This document shows positions 32,659 to 58,786 of a stretch of DNA of 64,000 nt, piece by piece. Both the position numbers and the translations under genes were made by a program. Below the pieces are notes generated by a model. That model was not told where the DNA came from and ran no database searches. It saw nothing but the letters and a program-made list of their open reading frames with translations. The DNA comes from Candidatus Omnitrophota bacterium. Lineage in GTDB: Bacteria; Omnitrophota; Gorgyraeia; 2-01-FULL-45-10. The number at the start of each line of letters is the position of its first letter. Position 1 is the stretch's first letter. The stretch lies in assembly GCA_903843285.1 (NCBI GenBank), contig CAIMPC010000016.1:1075-65074 (forward strand). The letters are read 5' to 3'.

Positions 32659-32719
32659 ATAATCCGCTCCTTTCGACTCTTCTTAACCCTAACCTGGCAT
32701 ATCTAACCAGGTTAGATAG

Positions 32720-40245: not shown

Positions 40246-40248
40246 AGT

Positions 40249-42514
<2,266 letters not shown>

Positions 42515-42518
<4 letters not shown>

Positions 42519-44032: not shown

Positions 44033-44033
44033 A

Positions 44034-44582: not shown

Positions 44583-45073
44583 TTTTTACCGATTTCCTCA
44601 ATGAAGTCCTCAACTATACGCTTGTCACTCTCTTCCGAAAGCCTCTCCTCTATAACCTTTTCGGCAGCCCGTATCGCAATATCTACTACATCGTTTTTTA
44701 ACACTTCTCTTGCCCGGGCAATTTCGTCCTTGAGGCTGAATCTGGCCTTTTCGAGAAGCTTTTCGCCGTCGGCCTCAGCTTTTGCTATAATTCCATCGGC
44801 AACTTTACGGGCCTCATCGGCGGCCTGGCGGATCTTCACCTGTCTCTCCGCCTCTATCTCGGAGAGCCTTATCTCGTAATCGTGCTTTAACTTCATGGCA
44901 GTATCTTTAGCGTCCTCGGCAACCTTCAATTCTGAAGATATTGTCTCTTTACGCTTATCGAGTATACCAAGGAATCTTTTCCACAAAAATTTTCGCATTA
45001 TCGCCAGCAGGATCAAAAAACATATGATCTGAGCAACTAGCTCATTTGTGTTAAGAAGACTAAGAAGTCCCAT
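44579..45073 (-). CDS. atpF: F-type ATP synthase b subunit
   Basis: 164 aa with a single N-terminal TM helix, then a long charged coiled coil (AEAERQ...). Confidence 0.75.
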   Translation of the reverse strand: MGLLSLLNTNELVAQIICFLILLAIMRKFLWKRFLGILDKRKETISSELKVAEDAKDTAMKLKHDYEIRLSEIEAERQVKIRQAADEARKVADGIIAKAEADGEKLLEKARFSLKDEIARAREVLKNDVVDIAIRAAEKVIEERLSEESDKRIVEDFIEEIGKK

Positions 45074-45090
45074 TGGGTATTACAGCTCCT

Positions 45091-45321
45091 TTAGATCTTA
45101 CCTGACAGACTGAACGCGAAGACGAGCGCGTATATTGTTATAGCCTCGATAAATGCGCAGCCTGTAGCCATGTTAATAAGTATCTTCATGGATGCTTCAG
45201 GCTGTCTGCCGGTAGCCTCCATTGCCGATGCGACCGCTTTACCGAGCCCTATAGCCGATCCGAAAGCCGCTATTCCCAACCCTATGGGAAGCCCGAATGC
45301 CAACATTGCTTTATACTCCAT
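45091..45321 (-). CDS. atpE: F-type ATP synthase c subunit
   Basis: 76 aa, two-helix hairpin. RQPEA loop. Ion-binding carboxylate in FIEAITIY. Confidence 0.85.
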   Translation of the reverse strand: MEYKAMLAFGLPIGLGIAAFGSAIGLGKAVASAMEATGRQPEASMKILINMATGCAFIEAITIYALVFAFSLSGKI

Positions 45322-46084
45322 GACCTACCTCCTTTTTTTCGTTTTCATGGGTTAACACCAACGCAAAATATATCGTAGTTAAAAGACAGAAGACGCACGC
45401 CTGTACCACCGCGGCCAACAGAGCCAATAAAGTATTGAAGAGCAGGAGCGGAATGCCTTTAAGCCCGAACCCTGCCAGGATGGTTAATAACATATCATCC
45501 CCCCATATGTTGGAACGCAGACGCAGTGATAAGCTTATAGGCCTGATCAACTCCGCTATCGTATGAAGGAAAAACATTAGTATGGGTATCACGACCGAAG
45601 CCGCGAGAACCCCCCTGGGATTGCCAAGGAGATGATCTATGAATCCGAAAAAACCCAGCTCCTTAAATCCGGTGTATTGAAGATATATAAATACGCATAT
45701 GGCGAGAGCGAGGGTTACTGACCAACTGGACGTCGGGGCTTTCATAAAAGGAACCAGGCTTATGAGGTTCATAAATAATATATAGACGAAGAGCGTGCCA
45801 ATGAACGGCGTGAAACGCCTTCCCTTAGGACCCAGTATGCCGCAGACAAATGCGTCGAGGCCTCCGGCTATCATTTCGAATGCGGATTGCAGCCTCCCGG
45901 GTATCATCTTAAGTTGACGTGATGCGAAGATGGTTAAAAGTGATATTGCGCATATTGAGATAATAGAAAATATTACGGAATCATAATGCGCCAGGCTCCG
46001 GAAGATAGGAATATCTTTAAAATGGTCGCAAATGATGCTTACTAAATTAGGAAGCTCACTATGCGCTACGCCCGCTTCGGCCAT
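45311..46084 (-). CDS. atpB: F-type ATP synthase a subunit
   Basis: 257 aa. Conserved stator Arg in LSLRLRSNIWGD. Confidence 0.85.
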   Translation of the reverse strand: MAEAGVAHSELPNLVSIICDHFKDIPIFRSLAHYDSVIFSIISICAISLLTIFASRQLKMIPGRLQSAFEMIAGGLDAFVCGILGPKGRRFTPFIGTLFVYILFMNLISLVPFMKAPTSSWSVTLALAICVFIYLQYTGFKELGFFGFIDHLLGNPRGVLAASVVIPILMFFLHTIAELIRPISLSLRLRSNIWGDDMLLTILAGFGLKGIPLLLFNTLLALLAAVVQACVFCLLTTIYFALVLTHENEKKEVGHGV

Positions 46085-46416
46085 ATATTTACCACCCCTA
46101 TTACTAACAAGGCCACACCTACTCCGGATAAAATACTCATGATCGGAAATAATTTTGAAATCAGTATAAAGAAACCTATTAAATATAGCACAGGAAATTT
46201 AATTATGAGAGAAAATTTTACTCCCTTTGGATCTTTCCGCAGCATAGCAATTTCGAACAATCCCACCGTTAAAGCGAAATTTATAACACACCATATGACG
46301 CCTATCATAAAACCTGATGCCCAGGCGAGGTCTTTCTGCAGAAGGACTATTCCGGCAATGACAGATCCGATCAAATATGAGAATTTCATCACCTTCCTCA
46401 CCACATTGTTCATCAC
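46066..46416 (-). CDS. atpI: ATP synthase protein I-like (AtpI)
   Basis: 116 aa, 4-TM small protein immediately upstream of atpB. Confidence 0.5.
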   Translation of the reverse strand: MMNNVVRKVMKFSYLIGSVIAGIVLLQKDLAWASGFMIGVIWCVINFALTVGLFEIAMLRKDPKGVKFSLIIKFPVLYLIGFFILISKLFPIMSILSGVGVALLVIGVVNIWPKRA

Positions 46417-46643
46417 TATTCCTCGGACTTCAATGTAATTTTAATTATCTTCACGATCTCCTGGATGCTGGCAACGAAACCCAGCACAACCAATATTATA
46501 GCTGTATATCCGGGAAAGTGCATCTTTTTTATAAGAATCTCCGCGACCAAATACCCACCAAGAGGCCCCCCCGCTAAGACCAGAGGAATTATACCGAGAA
46601 GACCGGCCGTCCGGATCCATTTAAACATGTCTTTGTCGCTCAT
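46416..46643 (-). CDS. AtpZ/AtpI-family small membrane protein
   Basis: 75 aa with two TM helices. The ATG immediately follows the hycI stop codon, a 0-nt gap. Confidence 0.45.
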   Translation of the reverse strand: MSDKDMFKWIRTAGLLGIIPLVLAGGPLGGYLVAEILIKKMHFPGYTAIILVVLGFVASIQEIVKIIKITLKSEE

Positions 46644-47141
46644 TTAGCGTATTGCCTTAGCAACCGTAGCGGCTACTTTCTTCGCTGATACCTCCACACT
46701 CTTAGAGATCTTTTTACCGAAGTCTATGTTTTTAGGCTGGATACCTATTATAGTTGAACCGCAGCCGCATGACACCGTTAAATAGTCTATAAGTATCTTG
46801 GCCGGTATTTTATGTGTGGAGAATGATGCCCCTTCCGCTACCTCCTCGGGCTTAAACAGGTATACGGATCCGGCTTTTTTGCCGCCGTCAAGGGTATCGA
46901 TGAGGATTATATGTGAGGGTTTGAACTTCTTTATTTCACCGGTGAGATTTTCAGGAGCTGTCTCTCCAAAAAATATCTTTACGGAACTGCGCTTCTTTTG
47001 CTTTTTCAGGATCTTCTTAAGATCTTCTGCCGCCAGCATTCCTGCAATATCATCGGCTCTAAGCGTGGAGCCGATAGCAAGCACTGCTATCCTATCCGAA
47101 CCCGACAGCCTATTTGTCAGTATCTTTTTTAACGTCCGCAC
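46644..47141 (-). CDS. hycI: [NiFe] hydrogenase maturation endopeptidase (HycI/HyaD family)
   Basis: 165 aa. IAVLAIGSTLRADDIAG resembles the GNxxxxDDGxG protease motif. Located directly after the hydrogenase genes. Confidence 0.7.
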   Translation of the reverse strand: MRTLKKILTNRLSGSDRIAVLAIGSTLRADDIAGMLAAEDLKKILKKQKKRSSVKIFFGETAPENLTGEIKKFKPSHIILIDTLDGGKKAGSVYLFKPEEVAEGASFSTHKIPAKILIDYLTVSCGCGSTIIGIQPKNIDFGKKISKSVEVSAKKVAATVAKAIR

Positions 47142-47517
47142 AGAATGTCACCTTAAGTTTATTCTTATCGAGAACTGCGAGTTCGAATTCCTTAGTGGAT
47201 TCCAGCGCTTTCTTTATGCAAGAGTCTACGCACTGGGCGCAGTATATACATTTGGCCAGGTCAAACTGCGCCTCAAATTTCTTATCACCCACTTTCACTA
47301 TCTTAATGGCATTGGACGGGCAATCCCTTTCGCACATCTTACATCCTATACATAGCTCCGGGTGAAAATTTATTTTTCCCCTGTAATGAGCCGGCATCTC
47401 GCTCTTTTTAAACGGGTATTGCGACGTGGCGGACTTCTTAAAGAGAGATTGCAATACTTGTACCAACATCTTGCCTGGCCTTATCATATCGCAAGCACCC
47501 CTTTTAAGATCAGACAT
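47110..47517 (-). CDS. NuoI/HycF-like 2x[4Fe-4S] ferredoxin subunit of the group-4 hydrogenase
   Basis: 135 aa with CIGCKMCERDCP and CIYCAQCVDSC. Confidence 0.8.
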   Translation of the reverse strand: MSDLKRGACDMIRPGKMLVQVLQSLFKKSATSQYPFKKSEMPAHYRGKINFHPELCIGCKMCERDCPSNAIKIVKVGDKKFEAQFDLAKCIYCAQCVDSCIKKALESTKEFELAVLDKNKLKVTFCADVKKDTDK

Positions 47518-48425
47518 ATGAGCATCTGAAGAAACGCAAGCGGTGAAACTATTTTCCAGCAGAACTCAACCATTTGATCCATTCTGAATCTGGCGAATAT
47601 AGTGCGTGATAAGGATAGTATAGAGATGATAAATAGAAGCTTTCCCACATATAATAAAATTCCGAGCGCGGGTGTCAGTTGTAACCCAAACGGCAGATAG
47701 ACAGCGGATACCAGCGAGGCTCCGACGATAGTTTCGATATTGATTGAAAGCTTAAACATTGCCAATAATCTTCCGCTGTATTCGGTGAATGTGCCTCCGA
47801 CTATTTCTGTCTCGGCTTCGGGTATATCGAATGGCACCTTCTCTAATTTCCCCAGGAGGGCTATAAGGGATATCGCGAATCCTAAAAGATTGAACATCCA
47901 ATACCAGTGATGGTGGCTGTAAAATTTGGCCATTTCGCTAAGCGACCACGTGTTGGCCAGTAGCGCCGGAGCCAATATGCACATTAAAAGAGGTACCTCG
48001 TAAGCAAATAGCTGAGTAAGCGATCTGATGGCTCCGATCTTAGAGTAGAGAGACGTCGAGTACCATCCGCCCAAAAAATATGTGAGAGTCGGTATCGTCA
48101 GTAAATATATAGTTACGATGAGATCTCCATTGAATGAATATAGCGCATGTGTGCTCCATAATGGTATATAGAACGAAGCTGTTATGGTCGAAGTCAGCGC
48201 GAATATAGGCATCGCCCTAAACATTCTGGGATTAGCTTCCGTAGGTACCACGTCTTCCTTTGAAACGAGTTTAATAAAATCAGCCCATGGCTGAAACCAT
48301 GGCGGCCCTGTGCGGTTTTGCATCCTCGCATACAGCTTCCTATCTATAAACTCCGCTGACATGCCGGCTACGCCAAGAAAAATAATTCCGGGAAAAACCA
48401 GAAGATTAAATATACTGATTAACAT
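47484..48425 (-). CDS. NuoH/HycD/EchB-like membrane subunit
   Basis: 313 aa, 8-TM NuoH-family pattern. Confidence 0.75.
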   Translation of the reverse strand: MLISIFNLLVFPGIIFLGVAGMSAEFIDRKLYARMQNRTGPPWFQPWADFIKLVSKEDVVPTEANPRMFRAMPIFALTSTITASFYIPLWSTHALYSFNGDLIVTIYLLTIPTLTYFLGGWYSTSLYSKIGAIRSLTQLFAYEVPLLMCILAPALLANTWSLSEMAKFYSHHHWYWMFNLLGFAISLIALLGKLEKVPFDIPEAETEIVGGTFTEYSGRLLAMFKLSINIETIVGASLVSAVYLPFGLQLTPALGILLYVGKLLFIISILSLSRTIFARFRMDQMVEFCWKIVSPLAFLQMLICLILKGVLAI

Positions 48426-49646
48426 TTATAACCTTTCAGCAAGTTTTTTATTAATGGCGGAGAAGTCCATTCCTTTGGATCTGTGCCATTCGATACCATA
48501 CAAGCGGAGGTCTTCCCACTTCATACTGCCAAGAGTTTCGCTCTTAGAACTATTAACACTTATAAGCCTGTCTGTACAAGAGAAACACGGATCAATGGCG
48601 GCGATCACTATCGGAAGATCCGCAAGCTGGCCGTCTTCAAGCATCTTAGCGACAGTCTGTACGTTTGCTAAAGTCGGAGCCCTGACTTTTACTCTCTCGG
48701 GCTTGTCGGTACCGTTCGATTTCACATAATGGACATCTTCACCCCTGGGAGCTTCATAACGGCTGAAGGCCTCACCTACGGGTATCTTTCGGGGGGCTTT
48801 AACAGAAATGAGCCCTTCCGGCAGGTTCTTTATAGCCGTGCGTATCAGGCGGTATGACTCCATCAGCTCGCCCAATCTCACGAGCGTCCTGCCATAGACA
48901 TCGTTATGGTCGTCCGTCACTATCTTAAAATCAAGTTCGTCGTAAGCAGCATACGGATCATCGGCTCTGGTGTCCCTTGCGACATCAGAAGCGCGAGCGG
49001 TCGGACCCACGGCGCCCAGCGATAGCGCATCATTATGAGAGAGAACTCCCACGCCTGATAATCTCTGTATTAAAGTGGACTCTTCTTTACAGACCTGGAT
49101 GTAATATTTAGTCCTCTCTTCGAGTATATCTACAGATTTTAATATATCTGTTATGTGCTGTTTTTCAAGATCTCTCTTAACTCCTCCGATGAGGTTTATG
49201 CCATAGTTAACACGATTTCCGGTAAGCTCCGCGAGTATATCCATGACGACTTCGCGATCGCGCCATGTGTACATAAGCAGTGTGTCGAATCCTACTTCAT
49301 GTCCTGCAACACCCAGCCATAATAAATGGCTGTGTATTCTTTCGAGTTCGCCTATGATGGAGCGGATATAAAGAGCCCTCTTCGGAACCTGCAACCCGGC
49401 TATCTCCTCAACAGCCTGAACAAAGCATGTAGAATGGGTATGTGAACATATGCCGCATATGCGCTCAATAAGATAGACATCCTGCAGGTATGTTCTCTCC
49501 TCGCAGGCCTTTTCTATACCGCGATGATTGTACCCGAGCCGTGCGCTGAATGCCATTATTCTTTCACCGCTCAATGTAACGCTAAAGCTTTCCGGCTCTT
49601 TTAATGCAGGGTGCTGTGGGCCTATAGGTATTACTACTTTACGCAT
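48426..49646 (-). CDS. Group-4 [NiFe] hydrogenase large (catalytic) subunit, NuoD-like
   Basis: L1 motif ERICGICSHTH (RxCGxCxxxH) and C-terminal L2 motif DPCFSCTDR. The start is moved to the Met of MRKVVIPIGPQHP, which has an AAGGAGG RBS 8 nt upstream and a 1-nt gap to the nuoC-like stop. Confidence 0.85.
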   Translation of the reverse strand: MRKVVIPIGPQHPALKEPESFSVTLSGERIMAFSARLGYNHRGIEKACEERTYLQDVYLIERICGICSHTHSTCFVQAVEEIAGLQVPKRALYIRSIIGELERIHSHLLWLGVAGHEVGFDTLLMYTWRDREVVMDILAELTGNRVNYGINLIGGVKRDLEKQHITDILKSVDILEERTKYYIQVCKEESTLIQRLSGVGVLSHNDALSLGAVGPTARASDVARDTRADDPYAAYDELDFKIVTDDHNDVYGRTLVRLGELMESYRLIRTAIKNLPEGLISVKAPRKIPVGEAFSRYEAPRGEDVHYVKSNGTDKPERVKVRAPTLANVQTVAKMLEDGQLADLPIVIAAIDPCFSCTDRLISVNSSKSETLGSMKWEDLRLYGIEWHRSKGMDFSAINKKLAERL

Positions 49647-49647
49647 A

Positions 49648-50139
49648 TTATTTCGCCTCCTTAACCTGAGTTTCTGCAGTATCGATTTTCGCGCCCTTAG
49701 GCTTCCAATCCTTCCTGAGAGGATGTTCGCCTTTCGGCCAATCGTCGGGAAGCGGGTAACGGTTACCTTCCGGAAGCCCTTCAACCTTCACCCCCAGTAA
49801 ATCTTCCAGTTCCCGCTCATAAATATCTGCATTTGTAAAATATTGCAATATGGAATTAATTACGGGCTTGTCTTTGGGTACGGAGTACTTAAGGCTGAAA
49901 GTAATTCCGTCGGTGCGAGACATATGATATATGAAGCCGAGAGTAGAACCCTCGTCTAAGCCTGTTATCGTGCAGAGTACAGAAAATCCCAGATTATCCT
50001 TAGCATAAGCAAAGACTTGTTCGAATTTATCGGGTGTAACGTCGGCCACGACCCTTCTGATGCGCTGAACTTTAGCCTTATCCTGTAAAAGCGGAAACTC
50101 GCTCGTGAGGCTTTGGACTATTTCATCTTCTTTACTCAT
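49648..50139 (-). CDS. NuoC/EchD-like subunit
   Basis: NuoC-fold of about 160 aa. The start is moved to MSKEDEIV to avoid a 62-nt overlap with the nuoB-like gene. Confidence 0.65.
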   Translation of the reverse strand: MSKEDEIVQSLTSEFPLLQDKAKVQRIRRVVADVTPDKFEQVFAYAKDNLGFSVLCTITGLDEGSTLGFIYHMSRTDGITFSLKYSVPKDKPVINSILQYFTNADIYERELEDLLGVKVEGLPEGNRYPLPDDWPKGEHPLRKDWKPKGAKIDTAETQVKEAK

Positions 50140-50584
50140 CGGATTTCTTCTCGCTCTCTTCCAAACTTGCCAATAATTTAACGACACCATCAATTATAGC
50201 TTTAGGACTGGCCGGACATCCGGGTATATAGGCAGAGACAGGGATGACTGCATCTATCCCTGACTCAACACTGTAACATCCGTCAAATACTCCACCTGAG
50301 CATGAACAGCTCCCTACGGCTATTACAAACTTTGGCTCAGCCATCTGGTCGTATACTCTCTTTAACCGATCTCTCGTCTGTCTGGTAACGGGGCCGGAGC
50401 AGACCAGGACGTCGGCATGTTTAGGCGCGCCTTTAATCTGGATCCCGAAGCGCTCCACATCATACGTCGGCGTCAATGCGGCCACTATTTCAATATCACA
50501 TGCGTTACAGGCGCCGGTATTGAAATGGATTATCCATGGTGACTTTATCCTGGACCAGTTAACTATCTTATCAACGATATTCAT
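50132..50584 (-). CDS. Group-4 hydrogenase small subunit (NuoB-like, hydrogenase-type CxxC)
   Basis: 150 aa. GACNAC, the CxxC form used by hydrogenase small subunits rather than the CC of complex I, plus GSCSCSGG and PGCP cysteines. Confidence 0.8.
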   Translation of the reverse strand: MNIVDKIVNWSRIKSPWIIHFNTGACNACDIEIVAALTPTYDVERFGIQIKGAPKHADVLVCSGPVTRQTRDRLKRVYDQMAEPKFVIAVGSCSCSGGVFDGCYSVESGIDAVIPVSAYIPGCPASPKAIIDGVVKLLASLEESEKKSDE

Positions 50585-50585
50585 A

Positions 50586-50918
50586 TCATCTCCTGAAAAG
50601 AATGGTAAGCCCTGCGAGCGCGCCTGCGAGATATATTAATGCGATAGCAAAAGAGTTCATCGTTTCGACCGGAATCGTAGCTATGGTCAGCGCTACGACG
50701 TGCAGTACTGTAAATAGAAACGCAAACGGAAAGAATTGGCTATAGTCGGGTTGCATGAGATGCGTCTTTACGTCCTCACCGCAGGCGTAAGATGTCCCTA
50801 TATCGGCCGCGCGGTTCTTAGATCTGAACGAAATATTAGATAAGATTCCGGAAAAGAGCGAAACTATCGCCAATACTATTATGAAACATACCGGAGGTGT
50901 GAATATTATATTATTCAT
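50586..50918 (-). CDS. NuoA-like small membrane subunit
   Basis: 110 aa, 3 TM helices. YACGED resembles the YECG motif of NuoA/ND3. Confidence 0.5.
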   Translation of the reverse strand: MNNIIFTPPVCFIIVLAIVSLFSGILSNISFRSKNRAADIGTSYACGEDVKTHLMQPDYSQFFPFAFLFTVLHVVALTIATIPVETMNSFAIALIYLAGALAGLTILFRR

Positions 50919-50921
50919 CTG

Positions 50922-51260
50922 CTACCCCTTCAGCCTTTTAAGTCCTCGTATATCGAGATTATCGTTATATCTAAATGATCTTAATGCAATACCTCCGGCA
51001 ACAACGGCAACCACGACCTCTATGACTATTATAGTTATGACCATAGCCTGCGTCACCGAAGTACGGCCCGAGACATAACCTACCAGTATCATCAGAAGCG
51101 TAACTGCTTTTATCAGTAGCTCAAGGCCTATTATGGCGCGTATAATATTGCGAGAGACCAGCATGCAGTAAAGTCCGCAGACGAACGTCAAAATTATAAA
51201 GAAGCCGAATGTTAGAAATATTTGCCAGTAATCACCACTCATCTCTTCTTCTCTCCTCAA
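50922..51260 (-). CDS. NuoK/MrpC-like small membrane subunit
   Basis: About 105 aa, 3 TM helices. GLELLIKAV resembles the NuoK/MrpC signature. The first 6 codons are probably an artefact, with the start at MSGDYW. Confidence 0.6.
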   Translation of the reverse strand: MRREEEMSGDYWQIFLTFGFFIILTFVCGLYCMLVSRNIIRAIIGLELLIKAVTLLMILVGYVSGRTSVTQAMVITIIVIEVVVAVVAGGIALRSFRYNDNLDIRGLKRLKG

Positions 51261-51741
51261 ATAGTATTACGACCCCCAGGGCTCCTATGATGACTACTAT
51301 TATCTGCCCCAACATATCGAGTTGGCGCATATCCCACATTACGCGCCTCACATCAAGCTCGGGTGTCGTTACCGGTGGGATTATTATATTATTTCGAATC
51401 CTTATAAACGTGAGCGCAATACTAATTACGATCAATAATATGGGAAGATAGCCAAATCTCTTATTTCTCTCTTTTGATAACTCCACAATCTCTTTATTCG
51501 TAAGAGGTTTAGTAAGGCTTATCGTGCTGACAAATACGACGGTTATCAGGCCGGTACAGACGGAGAGCTCGAATACCGCTGCCAGAGGCGAGTTTAATCT
51601 AAACATAAGAATGGTTACGACGGCGCTGGTAAGTGCGAGGCCTATCGTCGCCTTAAGCAGACTTCTGCCCATTACCGTCCAAAGAACCGCGATAAGCATA
51701 ACCAGTAGAAGTAGCGTATTTATAGAGATATGAGAGATCAC
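51232..51741 (-). CDS. NuoJ/MrpB-like membrane subunit
   Basis: 169 aa, 5 TM helices. The AAVFELSVCTGLITVVFVS pattern resembles NuoJ. Confidence 0.45.
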   Translation of the reverse strand: MISHISINTLLLLVMLIAVLWTVMGRSLLKATIGLALTSAVVTILMFRLNSPLAAVFELSVCTGLITVVFVSTISLTKPLTNKEIVELSKERNKRFGYLPILLIVISIALTFIRIRNNIIIPPVTTPELDVRRVMWDMRQLDMLGQIIVVIIGALGVVILFEERRRDEW

Positions 51742-53168
51742 CTAATTATAAGCTCCTGTATTGGCGCTATGAATTTATTGAATACTAACGGGAAAAATAC
51801 GCCTGAGCCGATTATTATTACCGCGAGCATGATCGATGCAGTCGAGATACCTATTCTGGCCTCGTCGATATTCTCGTTCTCAATGGATAGCTTTCCGAAG
51901 AATACTTTTCTTTGCATAATTAGCAGATAAGCCAAAGTGATTACACTGGCCATTATCGCTATAAAAGAATATGTTTTACTGCCGGATTGCCATAACGCTA
52001 CTATTATCATTAGCTTTGACCAGAATCCCGCTAAAGGCGGCACTCCTGCGGCCGAAAGCATACCTATTACCGACGTTGTGCCGGTTATGGGCATTTTGGA
52101 TGATAGCCCACCCATCTTATTCATATCCGTGGTGCCGAGCCTCGTCTCAACCGCGGCCGAATTCACAAATAGAAGCGACTTAAATATGGAGTGATTAAAG
52201 ATGTGGAATATAGCGCCTGCGATACCCAGGAAGGTTCCACAGCCGAAACCTAAAATAATATAGCCGACCTGGCTTATGCTTGAATACGCGAGCATCCTCT
52301 TCATATCATTTTGTCCGATGGCGGCCAATGCTCCAAATACTATCGATAATGCTCCCAGGGCCAAAAGAATGGTTTTCAGGGACGGATCGAAGCCAAATAC
52401 TGCGATTAGCAGACGTATAAGAGTGTATATGCCCACCGTCTTTGTCACTATTCCACCCAGTAGCACAGAAACAGCGGCCGGCGCTGAGCTATAAGCATCC
52501 GGCACCCATGCATGAAACGGCACCAACCCTCCTTTTATGGCAAGTCCGCATACGAATAGACCGATCGCAAATAGTATAATGTTATTGTTCGCTAAATTCA
52601 GGGCTTGCCTTATGGCTTCGAACGATGTACTGCCTGAAACCATAAATAGAAGCGCGATCGATGTGAGCAGCATTATAGTGGCTATTGCGGAGAGTATCAA
52701 ATATTTAAAGGATCCCTCGATTGCATTCCTATCTTTTTCTAACGCTATCAGAACAAATGACGCCAGTGCGGTTATTTCGAGGAATATATAAAGAGTGAAA
52801 ATGTCTTTCACTAATACTATTCCATTCATCCCTATTGACGTTATGATAAGCAGATTCACGAACTTGAAGAGCTCTTTCTCGTCATAAATAGTATGGCGGG
52901 CCACGAGCAAGCTCGCTATTGAGACTATTCCGATACAGAGAAGCATGATGAAGCTAATTTGATCCATAGAGAGGCTGACTTTAAAGAATGTATCGATTTG
53001 CTTCATTTCGACATTCCATAACACGGGATGGCGGCAGGCGGCCAACAGTATCTGGCTAATGAAAATAAGGAGAGCGAACCAGAATGCAAGCCTTCTCGCC
53101 GGGGCTCTGGCGGACAGGTTCAGGATCACTATTCCTATGAGCGGAACCAATATAAGTAATGATAACAT
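51738..53168 (-). CDS. Antiporter-like subunit (NuoN/MrpD family)
   Basis: 476 aa, about 14 TM helices, proton-antiporter family pattern. Confidence 0.75.
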   Translation of the reverse strand: MLSLLILVPLIGIVILNLSARAPARRLAFWFALLIFISQILLAACRHPVLWNVEMKQIDTFFKVSLSMDQISFIMLLCIGIVSIASLLVARHTIYDEKELFKFVNLLIITSIGMNGIVLVKDIFTLYIFLEITALASFVLIALEKDRNAIEGSFKYLILSAIATIMLLTSIALLFMVSGSTSFEAIRQALNLANNNIILFAIGLFVCGLAIKGGLVPFHAWVPDAYSSAPAAVSVLLGGIVTKTVGIYTLIRLLIAVFGFDPSLKTILLALGALSIVFGALAAIGQNDMKRMLAYSSISQVGYIILGFGCGTFLGIAGAIFHIFNHSIFKSLLFVNSAAVETRLGTTDMNKMGGLSSKMPITGTTSVIGMLSAAGVPPLAGFWSKLMIIVALWQSGSKTYSFIAIMASVITLAYLLIMQRKVFFGKLSIENENIDEARIGISTASIMLAVIIIGSGVFFPLVFNKFIAPIQELIIR

Positions 53169-53183
53169 ATGTTCGACCAGCCT

Positions 53184-55004
53184 TTATTTTAATAATAGCG
53201 ATATTACTACCGCGGTTGCTACTAATGACCAAATAATATACGTCTTAACGCTTCCATCGTGCAAGCCTCGTATTATGGCTGATGCGTAATCAGTTATCGT
53301 TGGGATGAAAGAATCATATATCCAATTTGTAGCCTTATCGCACGTACTCAGGCAGTAAGCAAAAATGGTCGTTGCCCCCATCCCTATATTATAAGGATCG
53401 AGCACTCCTCTTTCAGCCTTATCGTAAACTGTGCTCAGTATTGGGGCATGGTGAATATGATCTACAGCCTTAAGTCCACTGCCCGTGCGTTTTACGCCAT
53501 ACATATGATTAAGCACAGCGGCAATAAGAACTGCTATTGTTACCCATACTATCGTGGTATTTGTGGGCCAGCCGGCGAAGTTATAATCCTCAAGCCTTGA
53601 TCCTAAGATCGGCTGGATCAAATATTTTAATGGAATCGAGTTCCATAATCCGAATATAACGCACAGGGATGCGATCGTTATCATAGGCGCTAACATTGAT
53701 ATGGGCGCCTCTTTAACATCTTCCCTATTTGCCCTACCCATAAACGCCGCATGGCCAAGCTTTAAGAACGAAGCCGCCGTTAGGAACGACCCGAGCACAG
53801 CCGCAATATAGAATATCATACCTCTTTCCAGGGCGCCATCATATATAAGCTCTTTAGAGAAAAACCCGTTGAATGGCGGTACTCCTGATATCGAAGCAGC
53901 CGTTATGATAAAACATATAAATGTAATCGGCATCATTCTGCCCAGTCCACCCAGCTTCTCCAGGTCTGTAGTTCCGGCCTGTTTTTCAACGGAGCCCCCG
54001 GTCAAGAATAAACAACTCTTATACATGGCATGGTTGATCATATGGAATAATCCGCCAACTATTCCGATAGGCACGAGCGTTCCGATGCCAAGTATCATAT
54101 ACCCTACCTGACTTATGGCGTGATAAGACAATAATCTCTTATAATCCTTCTGTATTAATGCCATCAGAACCGCGCCCAATATCGTGATGGCTCCGACCGT
54201 CATAAGCGTATAACTAGCCCATGAATTATGAGAAAGTTTAAACATGTCCAGAGATATTCTAGCCAGTAAATATATGCCCAACAACTTTTCAAGAGCGGCC
54301 GGCAATATGGCCATAAAAGGTAAATGGGCGTCAAGCGCGGCGTCCGGTATCCACGTGTGGAATGGCATTGATCCGGCCTTAGCAATCGCGCCAATAACCA
54401 TTAATATGAATGCCAGACCGCCTATACCACCAACTCCAATACATATATTTGACATCGTAAATGTTCCTGCAATATGGCCGCAGATCGCAATGCCTGCCAT
54501 CAAACATAGATCGCTGATGCCGACGATGATAAAGGCCTTAGTAGCTGTCTTATAAGCGGCCTTATTTCCTATTGCTATCATTCCCCACAGCGTAACAAGT
54601 AAGGCCTCCCAAAAGAATAGCATAAGGACGAGATTGTTCGACAATACTGCGCCATTGACCAGAGATAGTGAAATCAGGAGGAGGCCGAAAAAGATGCCGG
54701 AATTAGATTTCTCGCGCATGAACGCCACGGAATACAGAGTGATCAGAAATCCAAATCCCGCAGATGCCAGGATTATAAAGGCGCTGAATTGGTATAGCCT
54801 GAGCGAAAACTCAAAACCGAAGCTTGCCCAAGGCACCGTGAAAGAAAAATTACTCTTAAATATCATGGCTGTGGCCACCAGATTGGCAAACGTGACTAGT
54901 AATGCTGTTATATCCTTAGGCCATTTGGAATTGCGGAGGAAAATTAATACCACAGATCCGGCGAGAAGCGGGACAAATATCAGTGAAAGTAGAATATTTT
55001 CCAT
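53184..55004 (-). CDS. Antiporter-like subunit (NuoL/MrpA family)
   Basis: 606 aa, the longest of the three, as is typical for NuoL/MrpA. Confidence 0.75.
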   Translation of the reverse strand: MENILLSLIFVPLLAGSVVLIFLRNSKWPKDITALLVTFANLVATAMIFKSNFSFTVPWASFGFEFSLRLYQFSAFIILASAGFGFLITLYSVAFMREKSNSGIFFGLLLISLSLVNGAVLSNNLVLMLFFWEALLVTLWGMIAIGNKAAYKTATKAFIIVGISDLCLMAGIAICGHIAGTFTMSNICIGVGGIGGLAFILMVIGAIAKAGSMPFHTWIPDAALDAHLPFMAILPAALEKLLGIYLLARISLDMFKLSHNSWASYTLMTVGAITILGAVLMALIQKDYKRLLSYHAISQVGYMILGIGTLVPIGIVGGLFHMINHAMYKSCLFLTGGSVEKQAGTTDLEKLGGLGRMMPITFICFIITAASISGVPPFNGFFSKELIYDGALERGMIFYIAAVLGSFLTAASFLKLGHAAFMGRANREDVKEAPISMLAPMITIASLCVIFGLWNSIPLKYLIQPILGSRLEDYNFAGWPTNTTIVWVTIAVLIAAVLNHMYGVKRTGSGLKAVDHIHHAPILSTVYDKAERGVLDPYNIGMGATTIFAYCLSTCDKATNWIYDSFIPTITDYASAIIRGLHDGSVKTYIIWSLVATAVVISLLLK

Positions 55005-55008
55005 AACT

Positions 55009-56445
55009 TTATATACCCAACATCTGCTTAAGCGTTATCTGAACGTATGCGGCCGGATAGCTTATCCAGATGCCTCCAGCCAGCGAAAGGATCCCTAATA
55101 TTGCTACACTGGCCACCATTACGCGCGAGCCTTCGGCCTCTGAATGCGCCTTCTCTTCACCCATGAAGATCATGTTGAATAGTCTGAATAGATATATGAT
55201 CGTAAGGAATGCGCCAACGAGAAAGACCATAGCTATCCATACGTTTTGATTAAATGCGCCTGACATTACCATATATTTAGAGAAGAACCCTCCGAACGGG
55301 GGTACACCCATTACCGACAATGCACAGAACAGGAACGAGATGGCGGTTATTGGCATAGAGGCTAATAGCCCCCCCATTTTAGTAATGTCTTTAGTGCGTG
55401 TTCCGTGCTCTATTATTCCGGCACACAGAAAAAGTCCGCCTTTTGCTATGCCATGCATTAATATATATAGGAGGGCGCCCGCTATACCTATGTTACCTCC
55501 AACAGCAAGACCGAGGAATATAAAAGCTATCTGACTGATGGTCGAATACGCTATTATTCTCTTCATGTCGGTTTCGATTAATGCGGCGCCTGCAGAGATT
55601 AGCGCGCTGGCGGAGGCAATGATCGGTACGACCGTGTGCCATATAGCGGCTATTGGAAGCGTCATGACGAAAAGCCTGGCAAATACATAAACTCCTATTT
55701 TTACCAGGACGGCGGCGTGAAGCAGTGCTGTCACGGGCGATGGCGCAACGCCGGCATCGGGTAGCCACGTATGAAACGGAAGAGTTGCCGACTTCGAAAG
55801 TATCCCCAGCAGTATAAGGAGGACTATCCAGTTGGATATCGGGTTTACTCCGAAATATCCCTTTATGACGGCCAGATCGAATGATCCGGTCTCGGCATAT
55901 AGCAATATGAAGCCAAATAACATTGCCAGGGCGCCAAAGATAGTAACCATAAACGCTTTATCAGCCTTAATAACATGCTGTTTCTCCCTGAAAAAGCCTA
56001 TAAGGCGCCAGCTTGCTATAGCGGTTATCTCCCAGAATATATATAGAAGGATTAGATTTGAGGAGAAGACGAGTCCCATCATCGCGCCTATGAATAAGAC
56101 TACCATCGTATAGTATTCATTTCGATTGGGATAATGACTTATATATCCGAAAGAATACATCGTGATGATGACGCTAATAAACGATGAGACTATTGCCATG
56201 AAGACGGATAAAGGATCTGCAGTTAATACGAAGTTAAATCCGAGCGGACCGGCTAAGGCTACGGTTATCGTCTGTCCGGACAATACCGTAGGCACAAGCA
56301 TAGCCGAGGCCACAAGCGATGCTAATACGAATATTAGCGCCAGCGCGTTTCTTAAGTGCTCGGAAATCCTCCCTATAGCGGGCAGTGTGAATGCGCCCAT
56401 TACGGGCACAAAGACTGCAGCTAATAGCAGTCCACTATTATTCAT
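55009..56445 (-). CDS. Antiporter-like subunit (NuoM/MrpD family)
   Basis: 478 aa. Its ATG overlaps the hppA stop by 8 nt (CATGAATAA). Confidence 0.75.
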   Translation of the reverse strand: MNNSGLLLAAVFVPVMGAFTLPAIGRISEHLRNALALIFVLASLVASAMLVPTVLSGQTITVALAGPLGFNFVLTADPLSVFMAIVSSFISVIITMYSFGYISHYPNRNEYYTMVVLFIGAMMGLVFSSNLILLYIFWEITAIASWRLIGFFREKQHVIKADKAFMVTIFGALAMLFGFILLYAETGSFDLAVIKGYFGVNPISNWIVLLILLGILSKSATLPFHTWLPDAGVAPSPVTALLHAAVLVKIGVYVFARLFVMTLPIAAIWHTVVPIIASASALISAGAALIETDMKRIIAYSTISQIAFIFLGLAVGGNIGIAGALLYILMHGIAKGGLFLCAGIIEHGTRTKDITKMGGLLASMPITAISFLFCALSVMGVPPFGGFFSKYMVMSGAFNQNVWIAMVFLVGAFLTIIYLFRLFNMIFMGEEKAHSEAEGSRVMVASVAILGILSLAGGIWISYPAAYVQITLKQMLGI

Positions 56446-58786
56446 GACAAGCTGTGTCTGTAGTTGATGGTGCTGCCTCGGGTACTGGTCTCTTACTCTG
56501 CCATATAGCCCATATAAGCACCAGGCAGATTAAAGAGATTACAACCCACGCCTTAAAACCAAGATGATTGTATTGAACTACTATAGGCGCAATAATAACC
56601 GATACCAGATTAACTACCTTAATCATCGGATTAAGCGCAGGACCCGCAGTATCTTTAAGAGGGTCTCCGACCGTGTCACCTACGACGCCTGCCTTATGCC
56701 TCTCGGAACCCTTGCCGGTGTTAAGACAAACATCCTTAACCTCATCCTCGATTGTTTTCTTACAGTTATCCCAGGCGCCGCCTGCGTTCGACATGAATAC
56801 GGCTAAAAGCTGCCCTGAAAGTATTATTCCGGCCAGGAATCCGCCGAGGGCTTCTACCTGCAATACTGTACCTACCAATATCGGTGTTACTATGCAAATT
56901 ATAGCCAGACTTATCAGCTCTTTCTGAGCCGCTACAGTCGAAATGGCAACAGCCTGCCTATAGTCCGGCTTTACCTTACCTTCCAGCACACCCAATTTAA
57001 ACTGTCTTCTCACCTCTTCTACTATCAGCGCTGCAGCGCGGCTGACAGCCTGGATAGAGAACGCTGAGAATAACCATGGAAGCGCGCCCCCTATAAGCAT
57101 TCCTATAAATACCTGGGGCACTGAGACCCTTATACCTATCGATGATAATCTTTCCGCAAGAGGGACCCCCATTGCCATCTGAACTCTGCTCACATCGACC
57201 ATGTATGATCCAAATAGCGCTACGGCGGCTATGACAGCCGATCCTATCGCGACACCTTTAGTAATGGCTTTAGTCGTGTTCCCCACACCATCGAGATCGG
57301 CCATTATTCGTCTGGCATCGAGCGTCTCTTTGTCGGTCTGACCGTGCCATGCCATCTCGCCTATTCCATTTGCATTGTCGGCTATCGGTCCGAATGAATC
57401 CATGGCTACGTTATTGCCCGTAAGCGTTAGCATACCTATTCCCGTCATTGCTACTCCATAGAGTATATATGCTATTCTCTCAGTGCCTCCAACACCGGGC
57501 ATCGTCCCAAATATCATAATTGAACTGAATATCGTGGCCGATATCAATAATATGGACCATACCGATGATTCATAACCGACCGCTATTCCGGATAATATAG
57601 TGGTTGCGGCGCCGGTTTTTGTAGATTTTCGTATTTCTCTGACAGGCGCGCCTTCAGTTCCGGTAAAATATTCAGTGAGCCTGTCGATCATGATAGCTAA
57701 CAATACTCCGACTGCGGTAGCCAAAAATGGCCTCCACCAGCCGCCCGGCACCTTATTCATATACAGGAAGGCAAGAATACCGAATAAGACGACAGAGATC
57801 GCGGCCGACGTCAGGAACCCCTTGAATATGGCCTTCATTGCGTTTCCCTTTTTCTCGTTAGGGTCGCTTTTAACGGCATACGTACCTACGATTGAACAGA
57901 GCACGCCTATTCCGCGAACGAGTAGCGGATAGACTATCCACTCAAGCCTATGGGTTATATGGTATAACGCAAGACCTAGTATTAGCCCCGCAACGATAGT
58001 GACCTCGTATGATTCAAATATGTCAGCTGCCATTCCGGCGCAATCACCAACATTGTCACCGACCAGATCTGCTACGACTGCGGGGTTGCGCGGATCATCT
58101 TCAGGTATGTTATGCTCTACTTTTCCTACCAGATCCGCTCCTACGTCTGCGGCCTTTGTATAGATGCCTCCACCGACTCTCATAAAGAGCGCCAAAAGAG
58201 TTCCACCGAAGCCAAATCCTAACAGCGCATCCGGAGCGGCAATCCCGAATATAATAAATATTATCGTGCCGCCGAATAGGCCCAAGCCATCGGTCAGCAT
58301 ACCCGTTACGGTGCCGGCCCTATAAGCGATCCTGAGAGCATCCGCAAAAGACTTTTTTGCAGCCTGAGCCACGCGTACGTTGGCCTGAACTGCCATGCGC
58401 ATGCCAAGCTGTCCTACTAATAGGGAGAATATAGCGCCCATGATGAAGGCAAGCGCTCTGCCTATACCGATTATGAAACGGACTTGCGATTCGGACTGTC
58501 CGGCAAACCTCTGCATGGCTTCCACAGACGGAGGTACCACATAGACTGAGAGGAAGAGCGCAAACGTAAGTACACCTATAAGGGGCAGGATAGTGACTAA
58601 CTGTTTTTTTAAATATGTGTCGGCGCCCTCGCGGATCGCATTCCATACCTCTATCATCTTTGGAGAACCTTTATCCTCGGCAAGTATCTCTTTACGTAAG
58701 AAAAGCGCGTAGAGTAACCCAATGACTGATATCCCGAGAACGCCCCAAATTGCAAACTGTTCAAATACCGTAAGTCCGTAAACCAC
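56438..58786 (-). CDS. hppA: Membrane-bound H+-translocating pyrophosphatase, K+-independent type
   Basis: 782 aa, 16 TM helices. DVGADLVGKVE, DNVGDCAGMAAD and VGNTTKAITKG motifs. The Lys in GNTTKA is the established determinant of K+ independence. GTG start with a GGGGGG SD. Confidence 0.9.
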   Translation of the reverse strand: MVYGLTVFEQFAIWGVLGISVIGLLYALFLRKEILAEDKGSPKMIEVWNAIREGADTYLKKQLVTILPLIGVLTFALFLSVYVVPPSVEAMQRFAGQSESQVRFIIGIGRALAFIMGAIFSLLVGQLGMRMAVQANVRVAQAAKKSFADALRIAYRAGTVTGMLTDGLGLFGGTIIFIIFGIAAPDALLGFGFGGTLLALFMRVGGGIYTKAADVGADLVGKVEHNIPEDDPRNPAVVADLVGDNVGDCAGMAADIFESYEVTIVAGLILGLALYHITHRLEWIVYPLLVRGIGVLCSIVGTYAVKSDPNEKKGNAMKAIFKGFLTSAAISVVLFGILAFLYMNKVPGGWWRPFLATAVGVLLAIMIDRLTEYFTGTEGAPVREIRKSTKTGAATTILSGIAVGYESSVWSILLISATIFSSIMIFGTMPGVGGTERIAYILYGVAMTGIGMLTLTGNNVAMDSFGPIADNANGIGEMAWHGQTDKETLDARRIMADLDGVGNTTKAITKGVAIGSAVIAAVALFGSYMVDVSRVQMAMGVPLAERLSSIGIRVSVPQVFIGMLIGGALPWLFSAFSIQAVSRAAALIVEEVRRQFKLGVLEGKVKPDYRQAVAISTVAAQKELISLAIICIVTPILVGTVLQVEALGGFLAGIILSGQLLAVFMSNAGGAWDNCKKTIEDEVKDVCLNTGKGSERHKAGVVGDTVGDPLKDTAGPALNPMIKVVNLVSVIIAPIVVQYNHLGFKAWVVISLICLVLIWAIWQSKRPVPEAAPSTTDTACHE

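Follow-up and report, generated by a model that had tools for sequence, protein, structure and literature searches.

The locus described here lies on the minus strand of the window, the whole 64-kb stretch of Omnitrophota DNA that was analysed, where 12 tightly packed genes run from position 56445 to 46644. They encode three antiporter-like subunits, NuoJ-, NuoK- and NuoA-like proteins, NuoB, NuoC, NuoD (the [NiFe] large subunit), NuoH, NuoI and a HycI protease. All ORFs were found in the order given by the initial annotation, and each is accounted for by a subunit assignment from Pfam and NCBIfam, but the labels 'M-like' for the 478-aa protein and 'MrpB-like' for the 169-aa protein proved imprecise. 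The genes and their neighbours, in the direction of transcription, are:

56438..58786, minus strand: membrane-bound pyrophosphatase (PPase), 782 aa, Pfam PF03030 4.5e-237; neighbour, not a subunit
55009..56445, minus strand: antiporter-like subunit 1, 478 aa; NuoL/HyfD/MrpA-type core with a Proton_antipo_N domain, no lateral-helix extension
53184..55004, minus strand: antiporter-like subunit 2, 606 aa; NuoL/MrpA-like, with C-terminal TM15, lateral helix and TM16
51738..53168, minus strand: antiporter-like subunit 3, 476 aa; NuoM/NuoN/MrpD type
51232..51741, minus strand: NuoJ-like, 169 aa, five predicted TM helices; equivalent to MbhD fused to the first two MbhE helices
50922..51242, minus strand: NuoK/MrpC/MbhG-like, 106 aa from the ATG at 51242; Pfam PF00420 (Oxidored_q2) 1.9e-17
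50586..50918, minus strand: NuoA/ND3-like, 110 aa; TM1, long loop with a SYACGED motif, TM2, TM3
50132..50584, minus strand: NuoB-like small subunit, 150 aa; Pfam PF01058 (Oxidored_q6) 4.9e-31; one [4Fe-4S] cluster, CxxC
49648..50139, minus strand: NuoC-like, 163 aa from the ATG, unfused to the large subunit; Pfam PF00329 (Complex1_30kDa) 3.9e-25
48426..49646, minus strand: [NiFe] large subunit, NuoD-like, 406 aa; both Ni-binding motifs, 45-aa C-terminal tail
47484..48425, minus strand: NuoH/MbhM-like membrane anchor, 313 aa; Pfam PF00146 (NADHdh) 2.8e-75, NCBIfam NuoH 4.6e-65
47110..47517, minus strand: NuoI/MbhN-like ferredoxin-type subunit, 125-135 aa depending on the start codon; Fer4 family matches
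46644..47141, minus strand: HycI-type maturation endopeptidase for the large subunit, 165 aa; Pfam PF01750 2.1e-16
39973..46643, minus strand: F-type ATP synthase genes (Pfam ATP-synt_A, ATP-synt_ab); neighbours, not subunits

The PPase gene is directly upstream, and its 3' end, with the stop codon, shares 8 nt with the 5' end of the gene for antiporter-like subunit 1; a PPase adjoins the operon in 14 of 80 related loci, belonging to several phyla. Directly downstream, the first two genes of the ATP synthase block encode small membrane proteins (75 and 116 aa), and those for subunits a, c, b, delta, alpha, gamma, beta and a short epsilon follow; the same hydrogenase-ATP synthase layout is present in two related loci (L002 and L004). 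In the window, the pyrophosphatase, hydrogenase and ATP synthase genes form one contiguous cluster. The PPase motif GNTTKAITKG is that of the K+-independent, H+-pumping type, and the ATP synthase c-subunit is without the Na+ ligands Gln32 and Ser66 known from Ilyobacter. No hyp maturation genes were found in the 64-kb window or among the recurrent neighbours of the 80 loci.

The large subunit matches both Complex1_49kDa (1.2e-69) and NiFeSe_Hases (4.8e-14) in Pfam, and the ATG at 49646, in place of the TTG at 49784, is its most likely start codon. Both Ni-binding motifs claimed for it, RICGICSHTH and DPCFSCTDR, are seen in the translation, the latter followed by a 45-residue tail of the cleavable type. 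Its Glu18 is the counterpart of MbhL Glu21 and, like the Ni-Fe cysteines, is invariant in the family alignment (19 sequences). The small subunit has the expected hydrogenase-type CxxC, which appears in the alignment as GACNACD and resembles HyfI (GGCNACE), unlike the CC of E. coli NuoB (SCCYVE). The NuoC-like subunit, with matches to FpoC and NuoC in NCBIfam, most likely starts at 50139, and the NuoI-like translation contains two CxxCxxCxxxC motifs, equivalent to two [4Fe-4S] clusters. The HycI gene, correctly placed by the initial annotation, is likewise the last gene of the operon in 65 of the 80 loci. The two CxxC pairs, Glu18, the cleavable tail and HycI bear out the view that this is a real [NiFe] hydrogenase and not an Ehr relic.

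The 169-aa family profile matches MbsD (3.6e-11), MbhD (4.2e-10) and, over residues 12-114, E. coli NuoJ (2.6e-5), while Pfam NuoJ (PF00499) is matched by 34 of 34 members (best 7.6e-12) and MbhD by 33; Glu58 is invariant in the family. An MrpB-like identity was rejected, the profiles giving NuoJ/MbhD. The NuoK-like protein, with a Glu in TM2 and another in TM3, most likely begins at the ATG at 51242 rather than at the listed TTG at 51260 (a 112-aa ORF), and its PDB matches are MbsG (4.1e-10), NdhE (2.5e-8), MbhG (5.7e-8) and E. coli NuoK (4.2e-7). The 110-aa protein is a complete three-helix NuoA/ND3 homologue. Its single sequence matches PF00507 weakly (E 0.0025), and 33 of 39 family members match this Pfam entry, the best at 2.4e-7. 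In the PDB, the family profile matches solely ND3/NuoA chains (best 3.2e-4), and 6cfw chain I (MbhI) was not matched in this search. With the profile, an Asgard NuoA-like protein that is itself PF00507-positive reaches 57.6 bits and E. coli NuoA 18.7 bits; the AF2 model places helices at residues 8-29, 63-81 and 87-107, and homologues are named NuoA in IMG. The family profiles thus give NuoA/J/K-like subunits for the small ORFs, not the MbhA-G-type Mrp subunits envisaged earlier as an alternative, and neither the operon nor any of the 80 loci yielded a homologue of the Mrp E/F/G/B sodium module (MbhA/B/C/F).

Among the antiporter-like subunits, the 478-aa protein (Pfam PF00361, Proton_antipo_M, 3.5e-75; PF00662, 8e-09) has its best NCBIfam matches in NuoL and HyfD and is nearer to the NuoL/HyfD core than to NuoM, with 36% identity to E. 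coli NuoL and 35% to HyfD; its TM5 Glu139, TM7 Lys218, His243, Lys335 and TM12 Lys390 are invariant in the family. The 606-aa protein (Proton_antipo_M, 2.3e-54) aligns end-to-end with the NuoL model NF005141, residues 2-605 falling on positions 2-610 of 615, and has counterparts of NuoL Asp178 (Asp165) and Asp400 (Glu385). In its AF2 model (pLDDT 80.6), helices span residues 483-507, 515-581 and 586-605, and Foldseek ranks full-length chains of NuoL/ND5/NdhF and MrpA highest. The lateral helix is predicted to be continuous over about 45 residues (537-581), with short helices preceding it; according to this model, it may be shorter than that of NuoL and might clamp fewer than three subunits. 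The 476-aa protein (PF00361, 1.5e-74) scores 264.0 bits against TIGR01972 (NuoM; cut-off 263.8) and 253 bits against NuoN, and in its family, Glu131, Lys212, Lys243, Lys330 and Lys385 show little or no variation. In all three subunits, compared over 56-67 family members each, conservation of the canonical TM5 Glu, TM7 Lys, TM8 Lys/His and TM12 Lys is 96% or higher, and most of these residues are invariant. The location of TM15, the lateral helix and TM16 on a subunit separate from the NuoA-like one is a likeness to complex I; a NuoA-type element and the lateral helix are fused in MbhI of Mbh and reside in MbsH' of MBS (PMC7684303, PMC8165549).

The Pfam matches of the operon proteins are much too strong to be due to chance, and 80 independent loci show the same arrangement as a whole. 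Gene order is identical in essentially all of these, which carry at least 15 phylum-level labels, and the Endomicrobia and Omnitrophota loci combine the same 12-gene order with large subunits 66-81% identical to that of the window. The architecture is therefore not an unusual one, and its close relatives are already filed as HydDB group 4g or 'Mbh-Mrp type', uncharacterised (PMC8542988, PMC11257099, bioRxiv 10.1101/765248). This is the window's own family, with no structural difference; group 4g enzymes occur, for example, in Endomicrobium proavitum and, among Ca. Omnitrophota, in Ca. Saelkia and Ca. Gorgyraea. The group as such is loosely defined, polyphyletic and without an assigned function (PMC5037454, PMC13582414), and the nine-gene Ech2 type, which is quite different from this family, also falls in it. 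In the accessible papers on such enzymes, the 11-subunit complex-I-like inventory of the window's sub-family is not spelled out. Variants of the same architecture without Ni-Fe ligands also exist (L083, L084 and P0320).

Among solved structures, P. furiosus Mbh (group 4d, PDB 6CFW) has the closest large subunit (MbhL, E 3.4e-100), followed by HycE (3.9e-80); identities in the trimmed alignment are about 51% to MbhL, 40% to HycE and HyfG (37% to HyfG by BLAST) and 30% to E. coli NuoCD. Mbh and the window have in common the B-C-D-H-I order (MbhJ-K-L-M-N), three [4Fe-4S] clusters and NuoK-like and MbhD-like subunits. However, the antiporter-like subunit of Mbh is a single one, against three in the window; Mbh has a Na+ module (MbhA, B, C, F), which the window's operon lacks; its NuoJ is split as MbhD/MbhE, where the NuoJ-like subunit of the window is fused; and MbhI (TM1, loop, TM2, lateral helix), a partial NuoA, takes the place of the full, three-helix NuoA-like protein. 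In the window, the lateral helix belongs to the NuoL-like subunit. With the NuoA-like and NuoJ-like subunits present, each of the 11 core subunits of complex I (NuoA, B, C, D, H, I, J, K, L, M, N) has one counterpart. The A-B-C-D-H-I genes are collinear with nuoA-B-C-D-(E-F-G)-H-I, and the NuoL-type lateral helix and canonical channel residues are likewise shared with complex I. The window differs in keeping Ni-Fe ligands at the quinone-site position, in its CxxC instead of CC, in its maturation protease, and in having the antiporter-like, J and K genes upstream instead of downstream. [quoted passage not shown] It was thus right to call the enzyme more complex-I-like than Hyf or Mbh. Complex-I-like [NiFe] hydrogenases have already been described in Heimdallarchaeia (Asgard) and Bathyarchaeota (Appler et al., bioRxiv 10.1101/2024.07.04.601786); they too keep the Ni-Fe ligands, are without NuoEFG and have ferredoxin as the proposed donor. 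Two archaeal large subunits (P0245, P0250) are 48-52% identical to that of the window, and both clusters include a NuoA-like gene. The archaeal clusters have a fused NuoCD, one (L090) being in the true nuo order A-B-CD-H-I-J-K-L-M-N, whereas the bacterial family has separate C and D, a permuted gene order and three antiporter-like subunits. An evolutionary intermediate, as initially proposed, was not demonstrated: the closest solved large subunit is that of Mbh, and the point where complex I NuoD joins the large-subunit trees has at most 6% bootstrap support.

From its genes, the operon most likely encodes an intact membrane-bound [NiFe] hydrogenase of a predicted H2-producing type. No formate dehydrogenase, CODH, NuoEFG or HycB-like genes were found in the operon or among the recurrent neighbours of the 80 loci. 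We propose, as the probable reading, that the 12 genes form a self-contained energy-converting group 4 [NiFe] hydrogenase with its maturation protease, which would act as a reversible, H2-evolving ferredoxin:H+ oxidoreductase and pump protons via a complex-I-type membrane arm. By analogy with Mbh, Ech and photosynthetic NDH-1, reduced ferredoxin would dock at the NuoI-like subunit, and electrons would pass through three [4Fe-4S] clusters, two in this subunit and one in the NuoB-like one, to the Ni-Fe site of the NuoD-like subunit, where protons would be converted to H2. The reaction could be sensed by loops of the NuoD-, NuoH- and NuoA-like subunits, with protons translocated along an arm of NuoH, then NuoA/J/K, then the three antiporter-like subunits, which the lateral helix of the 606-aa subunit would clamp. 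H+ is suggested as the coupling ion by the neighbouring PPase and c-subunit, not by the hydrogenase itself. Several points speak against this reading: hyp genes were not found in the window or among the recurrent neighbours; the lateral helix may be too short to clamp all three subunits; the large subunit is nearest in sequence to that of Mbh, whose membrane arm runs the other way round; and the step from ferredoxin to H2 has a small free energy, which fits poorly with four proton channels. The ferredoxin/H+ couple would yield about 20-40 kJ per H2, too little for four protons at a normal membrane potential, so that the enzyme probably works near equilibrium and reversibly.

This probable reversibility means that operation in reverse is a matter of physiology and not of identity. 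A gradient made by the PPase or by ATP hydrolysis could drive H2 oxidation to provide reduced ferredoxin for biosynthesis, in the manner of methanogen Eha/Ech. Three to four channels are more in keeping with gradient consumption than with a low-energy pump, translation of the operon is coupled here to that of the PPase, a PPase adjoins it in the 14 loci mentioned, ATP synthase genes follow directly, and some Omnitrophota with this hydrogenase type have the Wood-Ljungdahl pathway (PMC8542988). However, most carriers are described as fermenters needing reductant disposal (PMC8542988, PMC11257099), and direction cannot be read from gene adjacency; we regard this option as tenable but unlikely. 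An Mbh/MBS-type machine, with the hydrogenase module beside the lateral-helix antiporter-like subunit, the NuoJ/K-like subunits distal, and Na+ exchanged or exported, seems rather improbable. It is consistent with MbhL as best solved match, with the shared B-C-D-H-I order, with the N-terminal half of the 169-aa subunit, which fits MbhD/MbsD better than NuoJ, and with relatives being called Mbh-Mrp or Mrp-linked (bioRxiv 10.1101/765248; PMC8542988). The absence of MbhA/B/C/F homologues from the operon and all 80 loci, a 110-aa subunit that is a full NuoA homologue and not of the MbhI type, and an adjoining PPase and c-subunit that look H+-specific argue against it.

[quoted passage not shown] Hardly credible is an Ehr-like or complex-I-like oxidoreductase that makes no H2 and reduces quinone or another acceptor. 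Ehr complexes, as far as the cited work describes them (Marreiros et al. 2013, cited in PMC6349859), have the same subunit types, and L083, L084 and P0320, relatives without Ni-Fe ligands, share the gene order of the window's operon; yet Ehr large subunits in that description are without the Ni-Fe cysteines. The window keeps all four of these, together with Glu18, the cleavable tail, HycI and a small-subunit CxxC in place of the CC of complex I, and the cysteines and Glu18 are invariant in the family alignment.

For the ferredoxin-dependent, proton-pumping hydrogenase preferred here, H2 evolution would be expected when a partner keeps H2 low, or the proton gradient would drive the reduction of ferredoxin by H2. 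Close relatives have likewise been predicted to be ferredoxin-dependent and H2-evolving (PMC11257099, PMC8542988). The operon is not rare, being carried by hundreds of uncultured anaerobes, and since it has already been catalogued, this locus can be considered a typical member of a little-studied family.

The operon on the minus strand (56445-46644) comprises 12 open reading frames that are separated by 0-15 nt or overlap, and its inventory corresponds exactly to the 11 core subunits of complex I and one protease.

Genes of the operon in the direction of transcription (all within 56445-46644)
Minus strand: three antiporter-like subunits of 478, 606 and 476 aa (Pfam Proton_antipo_M, PF00361, E 3.5e-75, 2.3e-54 and 1.5e-74)
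Minus strand, fourth gene: membrane protein of 169 aa
Minus strand: NuoK/MrpC-like protein (PF00420, 1.9e-17; likely true start 51242)
Minus strand, sixth gene, between the NuoK/MrpC-like and NuoB-like genes: membrane protein of 110 aa
Minus strand: NuoB-like small subunit of 150 aa (PF01058, 4.9e-31; GACNACD, a CxxC motif)
Minus strand: NuoC-like subunit (Pfam, E 3.9e-25; likely true start 50139)
Minus strand: NuoD-like [NiFe] large subunit (PF00346, 1.2e-69; PF00374, 4.8e-14; likely true start 49646)
Minus strand: NuoH-like membrane anchor (PF00146, 2.8e-75)
Minus strand, between the NuoH-like and HycI genes: protein with two [4Fe-4S] motifs
Minus strand, last gene: HycI (PF01750, 2.1e-16)

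The large subunit carries both Ni-Fe motifs, RICGICSHTH and DPCFSCTDR, which are invariant in a 19-sequence family alignment, and the GACNACD motif of the small subunit resembles that of HyfI, with a CC at the same site in E. coli NuoB. [quoted passage not shown] The 45 residues that follow DPCFSCTDR align with the tail of E. coli HycE, which is cleaved after the equivalent Arg; group 4 enzymes have such an extension and a dedicated HycI-type endopeptidase to remove it, and with the HycI gene present, cleavage is predicted here as well. Since the 12 reading frames, the family matches, both Ni-binding motifs, the tail and the small-subunit CxxC were all found, the initial annotation of a real hydrogenase with a complex-I-like inventory is borne out. 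The tail of the large subunit (48426-48563) is unusually long, and its residues Trp378, Gly393 and Phe396 are invariant across the family, a degree of conservation that would not be expected if the peptide were merely cleaved off. No hyp maturation genes were found among the scanned reading frames of the window or the recurrent neighbours of the 80 best related loci in other genomes. At the level of family-wide profiles for NuoA and NuoJ, and of individual matches for the rest, one predicted homologue each of NuoA, B, C, D, H, I, J, K, L, M and N can be recognised.

The 110- and 169-aa subunits lie below the Pfam threshold as single sequences, and family alignments were therefore built from related loci. 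The single 110-aa sequence returned only chance matches from a phmmer search of the PDB, none from NCBIfam and only a sub-threshold one from Pfam. Its family profile, searched against the PDB, matched ND3/NuoA chains only (14 matches, best E 3.2e-4) and did not match MbhI; the match covers the loop and all three TM helices, with SYACGED opposite the motif of ND3/NuoA, which reads FECGFD in the top match. Individually, 33 of the 39 family members match Pfam NuoA (PF00507, best 2.4e-7), and the profile scores 57.6 bits on an Asgard member of PF00507 (TYACGED ... FVIFDI) and 18.7 bits on E. coli NuoA. The AF2 model of the subunit has helices at 8-29, 63-81 and 87-107, a long disordered loop and no lateral helix; its best Foldseek match, the NuoA homologue NdhC, is not significant (E 0.32) and would only be consistent with a NuoA-like fold. 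Homologues are named NuoA in IMG and hypothetical in NCBI. The profile of the 169-aa family matches MbsD and MbhD (~1e-10) over the first three helices and E. coli NuoJ (2.6e-5) with a match that extends through helix 4, and all 34 members match Pfam NuoJ. The subunit corresponds to MbhD fused to TM1-2 of MbhE and is thus NuoJ-like, not MrpB-like. The earlier label MrpB-like has to be abandoned, as there is no MnhB match and the profile matches are to DUF4040/MbhD and NuoJ; the HMM classification that the initial annotation had called for gives a NuoA-like and a NuoJ-like subunit. According to an older review, no hydrogenase has NuoA or NuoJ (PMC3144371), and a 2026 paper found no relatives of NuoA outside complex I (PMC13399641); in structural studies of Mbh, NuoJ is matched with MbhD/E, and the N-terminal part of NuoA with MbhI (PMC8679088, PMC7684303).

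The channel residues are retained in each of the three antiporter-like subunits: Glu in TM5, Lys in TM7, Lys or His in TM8, His/Lys in TM11 and Lys in TM12. The residues in TM5, TM7, TM8 and TM12 are at least 96% conserved, most of them invariant, among 56-67 family members per subunit, and the TM11 His of the 606-aa subunit is less conserved in the family alignment. The latter subunit aligns end to end with the NuoL model, TM15, TM16 and, between them, a lateral helix (about 515-581) are seen in its AF2 model (pLDDT 80.6), and Foldseek retrieved full-length NuoL/ND5/NdhF and MrpA chains. The 478-aa subunit has a NuoL/HyfD-type core without the extension, and the 476-aa subunit is of the NuoM/N/MrpD type. 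Variations on this arrangement occur among relatives. In Margulisiibacteriota and some other lineages, proteins of ~1000 aa (P0489, P0499 and P0526; locus L041) match the second antiporter-like subunit over ~90% of its length and, given their size and the lack of a separate first gene detected in L041, are taken as fusions of subunits 1 and 2. A neighbouring clade in Anaerolineales (L086:4557-13019) has only two antiporter-like subunits, in the order J-K-Ant-Ant-A-B-C-D-H-I-HycI; Mbh-like enzymes without the Na+ module may thus form a graded series with one, two or three such subunits.

The architecture can be compared with four known systems. Mbh (group 4d) contains a Na+ module of MrpE/F/G/B (MbhA, B, C and F) and a single antiporter-like subunit, MbhH, clamped by MbhI with its TM1, loop, TM2 and lateral helix. 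By contrast, the operon encodes three antiporter-like subunits, bears the lateral helix on the 606-aa subunit and has a 110-aa subunit of three TM helices; no homologues of the Na+ module were found in it, all 12 genes being assigned elsewhere, or in the 80 loci. In these features, and with a large subunit outside the MbhL clade, the operon does not fit the definition of Mbh/Mrp-Mbh. Hyc/Hyf enzymes (group 4a) have a fused NuoC-NuoD large subunit, a ferredoxin-like HycB/HyfA subunit and a formate dehydrogenase partner, whereas here C and D are separate genes, and neither the operon nor the recurrent neighbours of the 80 loci include HycB/HyfA-like, formate dehydrogenase (FdhF), CO dehydrogenase or NuoEFG genes. 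The unfused C and D and the lack of HyfA-like and FdhF-like genes in and around the operon led us to reject a formate hydrogenlyase. The quinone site of complex I is marked by a NuoD without Ni-Fe cysteines and a NuoB with a tandem CC for cluster N2, whereas the operon retains the Ni-Fe cysteines and a small-subunit CxxC; the gene run A-B-C-D-H-I is collinear with nuoA-D and nuoH-I, and the antiporter-like, J and K genes lie upstream. Retention of the cysteines also led us to reject an Ehr complex, whose large subunit lacks them. Among relatives in Firmicutes and other groups (L083:433-9562 and L084:102-3919, as well as P0320), three antiporter-like genes are followed by J-K-A-B-C-D-H in identical order; the large subunits of L083 and L084 have lost the Ni-Fe cysteines (RYGGLGPQAH / DFCFGGAGR), and the NuoB-like protein of L083 (SCCGCD) has both the CC of complex I and the CxxC of hydrogenases.

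The family to which the operon belongs is very widespread, already catalogued and uncharacterised; the operon is typical of it and not a new system. More than 120 database clusters are 73-91% identical to the large subunit, and most of the named ones are from Candidatus Omnitrophota. A distribution scan with one genome per species yielded 561 stretches encoding relatives, and in the best 80 of these (61-81% identity) the 12 genes keep this order on every contig of sufficient length. They carry the labels Omnitrophota, Planctomycetota, Elusimicrobiota/Endomicrobia, Verrucomicrobiota, Margulisiibacteriota, Spirochaetota, Fibrobacterota, Bacillota, Myxococcota, Acidobacteriota, NC10 and Actinomycetota, among others. 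Among the energy-converting hydrogenases of uncultured anaerobes such as Omnitrophota, Planctomycetota, Elusimicrobiota, Spirochaetota and Bacillota, few are probably as widespread as this 12-gene type. Enzymes of Endomicrobium and Omnitrophota have been called HydDB group 4g (PMC11257099, PMC8542988), a loosely clustered, polyphyletic bin (PMC5037454, PMC13582414), and loci from those lineages share the operon, with large subunits 66-81% identical. The type probably sits in a bin of "unknown function", and its annotation often reads, wrongly, NADH dehydrogenase or Mrp-linked Mbh. The idea of a complex-I-like hydrogenase is itself already published, [NiFe] hydrogenases "architecturally resembling Complex I" having been described in Heimdallarchaeia (Appler et al., bioRxiv 10.1101/2024.07.04.601786).

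At the evolutionary level, a search of 1.84 billion representatives with the large subunit gave 942 matches at E 1e-30 or better, and neighbour-joining trees with bootstrap were calculated. The family forms a tight, separate clade (92% bootstrap), apart from the archaeal MbhL clade with P0267, P0289, P0286 and P0316 (91%) and distinct from HycE/HyfG (100%). Its nearest neighbours include P0241 and three large subunits, P0276, P0258 and P0320, that have lost the Ni-Fe cysteines and whose loci (L083, L084) show the gene order unchanged; further neighbours are the Anaerolineales cluster L086 and clusters from Bathyarchaeota and Asgard archaea, the last two keeping the Ni-Fe ligands. The Bathyarchaeota locus (L090:7534-17010) combines these ligands with the true complex I order nuoA-B-CD-H-I-J-K-L-M-N, and the Asgard locus (L091:2108-6077) reads A-B-CD-H-I up to the contig end. 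The attachment of complex I NuoD relative to the family has a bootstrap of 6% or less, so no sister-group claim is made; the evolutionary intermediate proposed earlier is not demonstrated, and "intermediate" describes an architecture, not a phylogenetic position. We regard it as rather improbable that the bacterial family and its archaeal Ni-Fe neighbours in nuo order (L090) are the closest living hydrogenase relatives of the 11-subunit ancestor of complex I. If they were, the origin of NuoA would be preserved in them, the 110-aa subunit bridging by sequence to bona fide NuoA, and the cysteine-less derivatives L083 and L084, with their identical gene order, would be a live replay of the loss of the Ni-Fe site.

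The genomic neighbourhood links the operon to two further ion-translocating systems. From 39973 to 58786, ~19 kb of the minus strand are taken up by one uninterrupted same-strand block: the membrane pyrophosphatase gene hppA, the 12 genes of the hydrogenase and those of a complete F-type ATP synthase. The first hydrogenase gene and the stop codon of hppA overlap by 8 nt, and directly after hycI come two small membrane protein genes, followed by atpB-E-F-H-A-G-D and a short epsilon gene. Two other Omnitrophota loci have the same layout; the pyrophosphatase adjoins the operon in 14 of the 80 loci, from several phyla, and is the sole recurrent neighbour, no conserved electron-input partner being found in the flanks. 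Promoter and terminator scans rose barely above the shuffled expectation, with a hint of a promoter-like site upstream of hppA and no convincing intergenic terminator seen; no RNA families were found in the window (Rfam). It is a possibility, separate from the question of ancestry, that pyrophosphatase, hydrogenase and ATP synthase are transcribed as a single unit and act as a coupled proton circuit. The two small proteins between hycI and atpB (46066-46643; 75 and 116 aa) have no Pfam match, are conserved in the related locus L002 and are presumably AtpZ/AtpI-like by position. The epsilon subunit (39973-40245) is only 90 aa long; it would lack the C-terminal helical hairpin and retain just the beta-sandwich domain. 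Downstream of the ATP synthase (29686-33826) lie a GltD-like protein paired with a DHODB-type Fe-S protein, putatively an NfnAB/SudAB-like ferredoxin:NAD(P) oxidoreductase, as well as rubrerythrin and phosphofructokinase, genes consistent with an anaerobic, ferredoxin-based metabolism.

The catalytic and maturation set is intact, with motifs for three [4Fe-4S] clusters, conserved channel residues and no other electron-input or Na+ module. We propose that ferredoxin would be the redox partner and that protons would be the coupling ion, as suggested by the neighbouring pyrophosphatase, whose GNTTKAITKG is the K+-independent signature, and by the ATP synthase c-subunit, which lacks the Na+ ligands. 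The membrane arm may follow the subunit order of complex I (NuoH, then A/J/K, then N, M and L), since here, as there, the complete NuoA and the complete NuoL C-terminus belong to different proteins; in MbhI and MbsH', by contrast, these elements are fused. Electron transfer from ferredoxin to H+ is estimated to provide only about 20-40 kJ per H2, against ~60-70 kJ for four protons at 150-180 mV, which implies fewer ions per turnover or reversible operation near equilibrium.

The anatomy described here should lead to better annotation and metabolic models of the MAGs that carry the operon. It provides a bacterial counterpart, present in cultured Endomicrobium, to the complex-I-like hydrogenases lately described in Asgard archaea, and a tractable system for the number of ions moved by a low-energy ferredoxin:H+ reaction through three antiporter-like subunits, and for how complex I gained NuoA and lost nickel.
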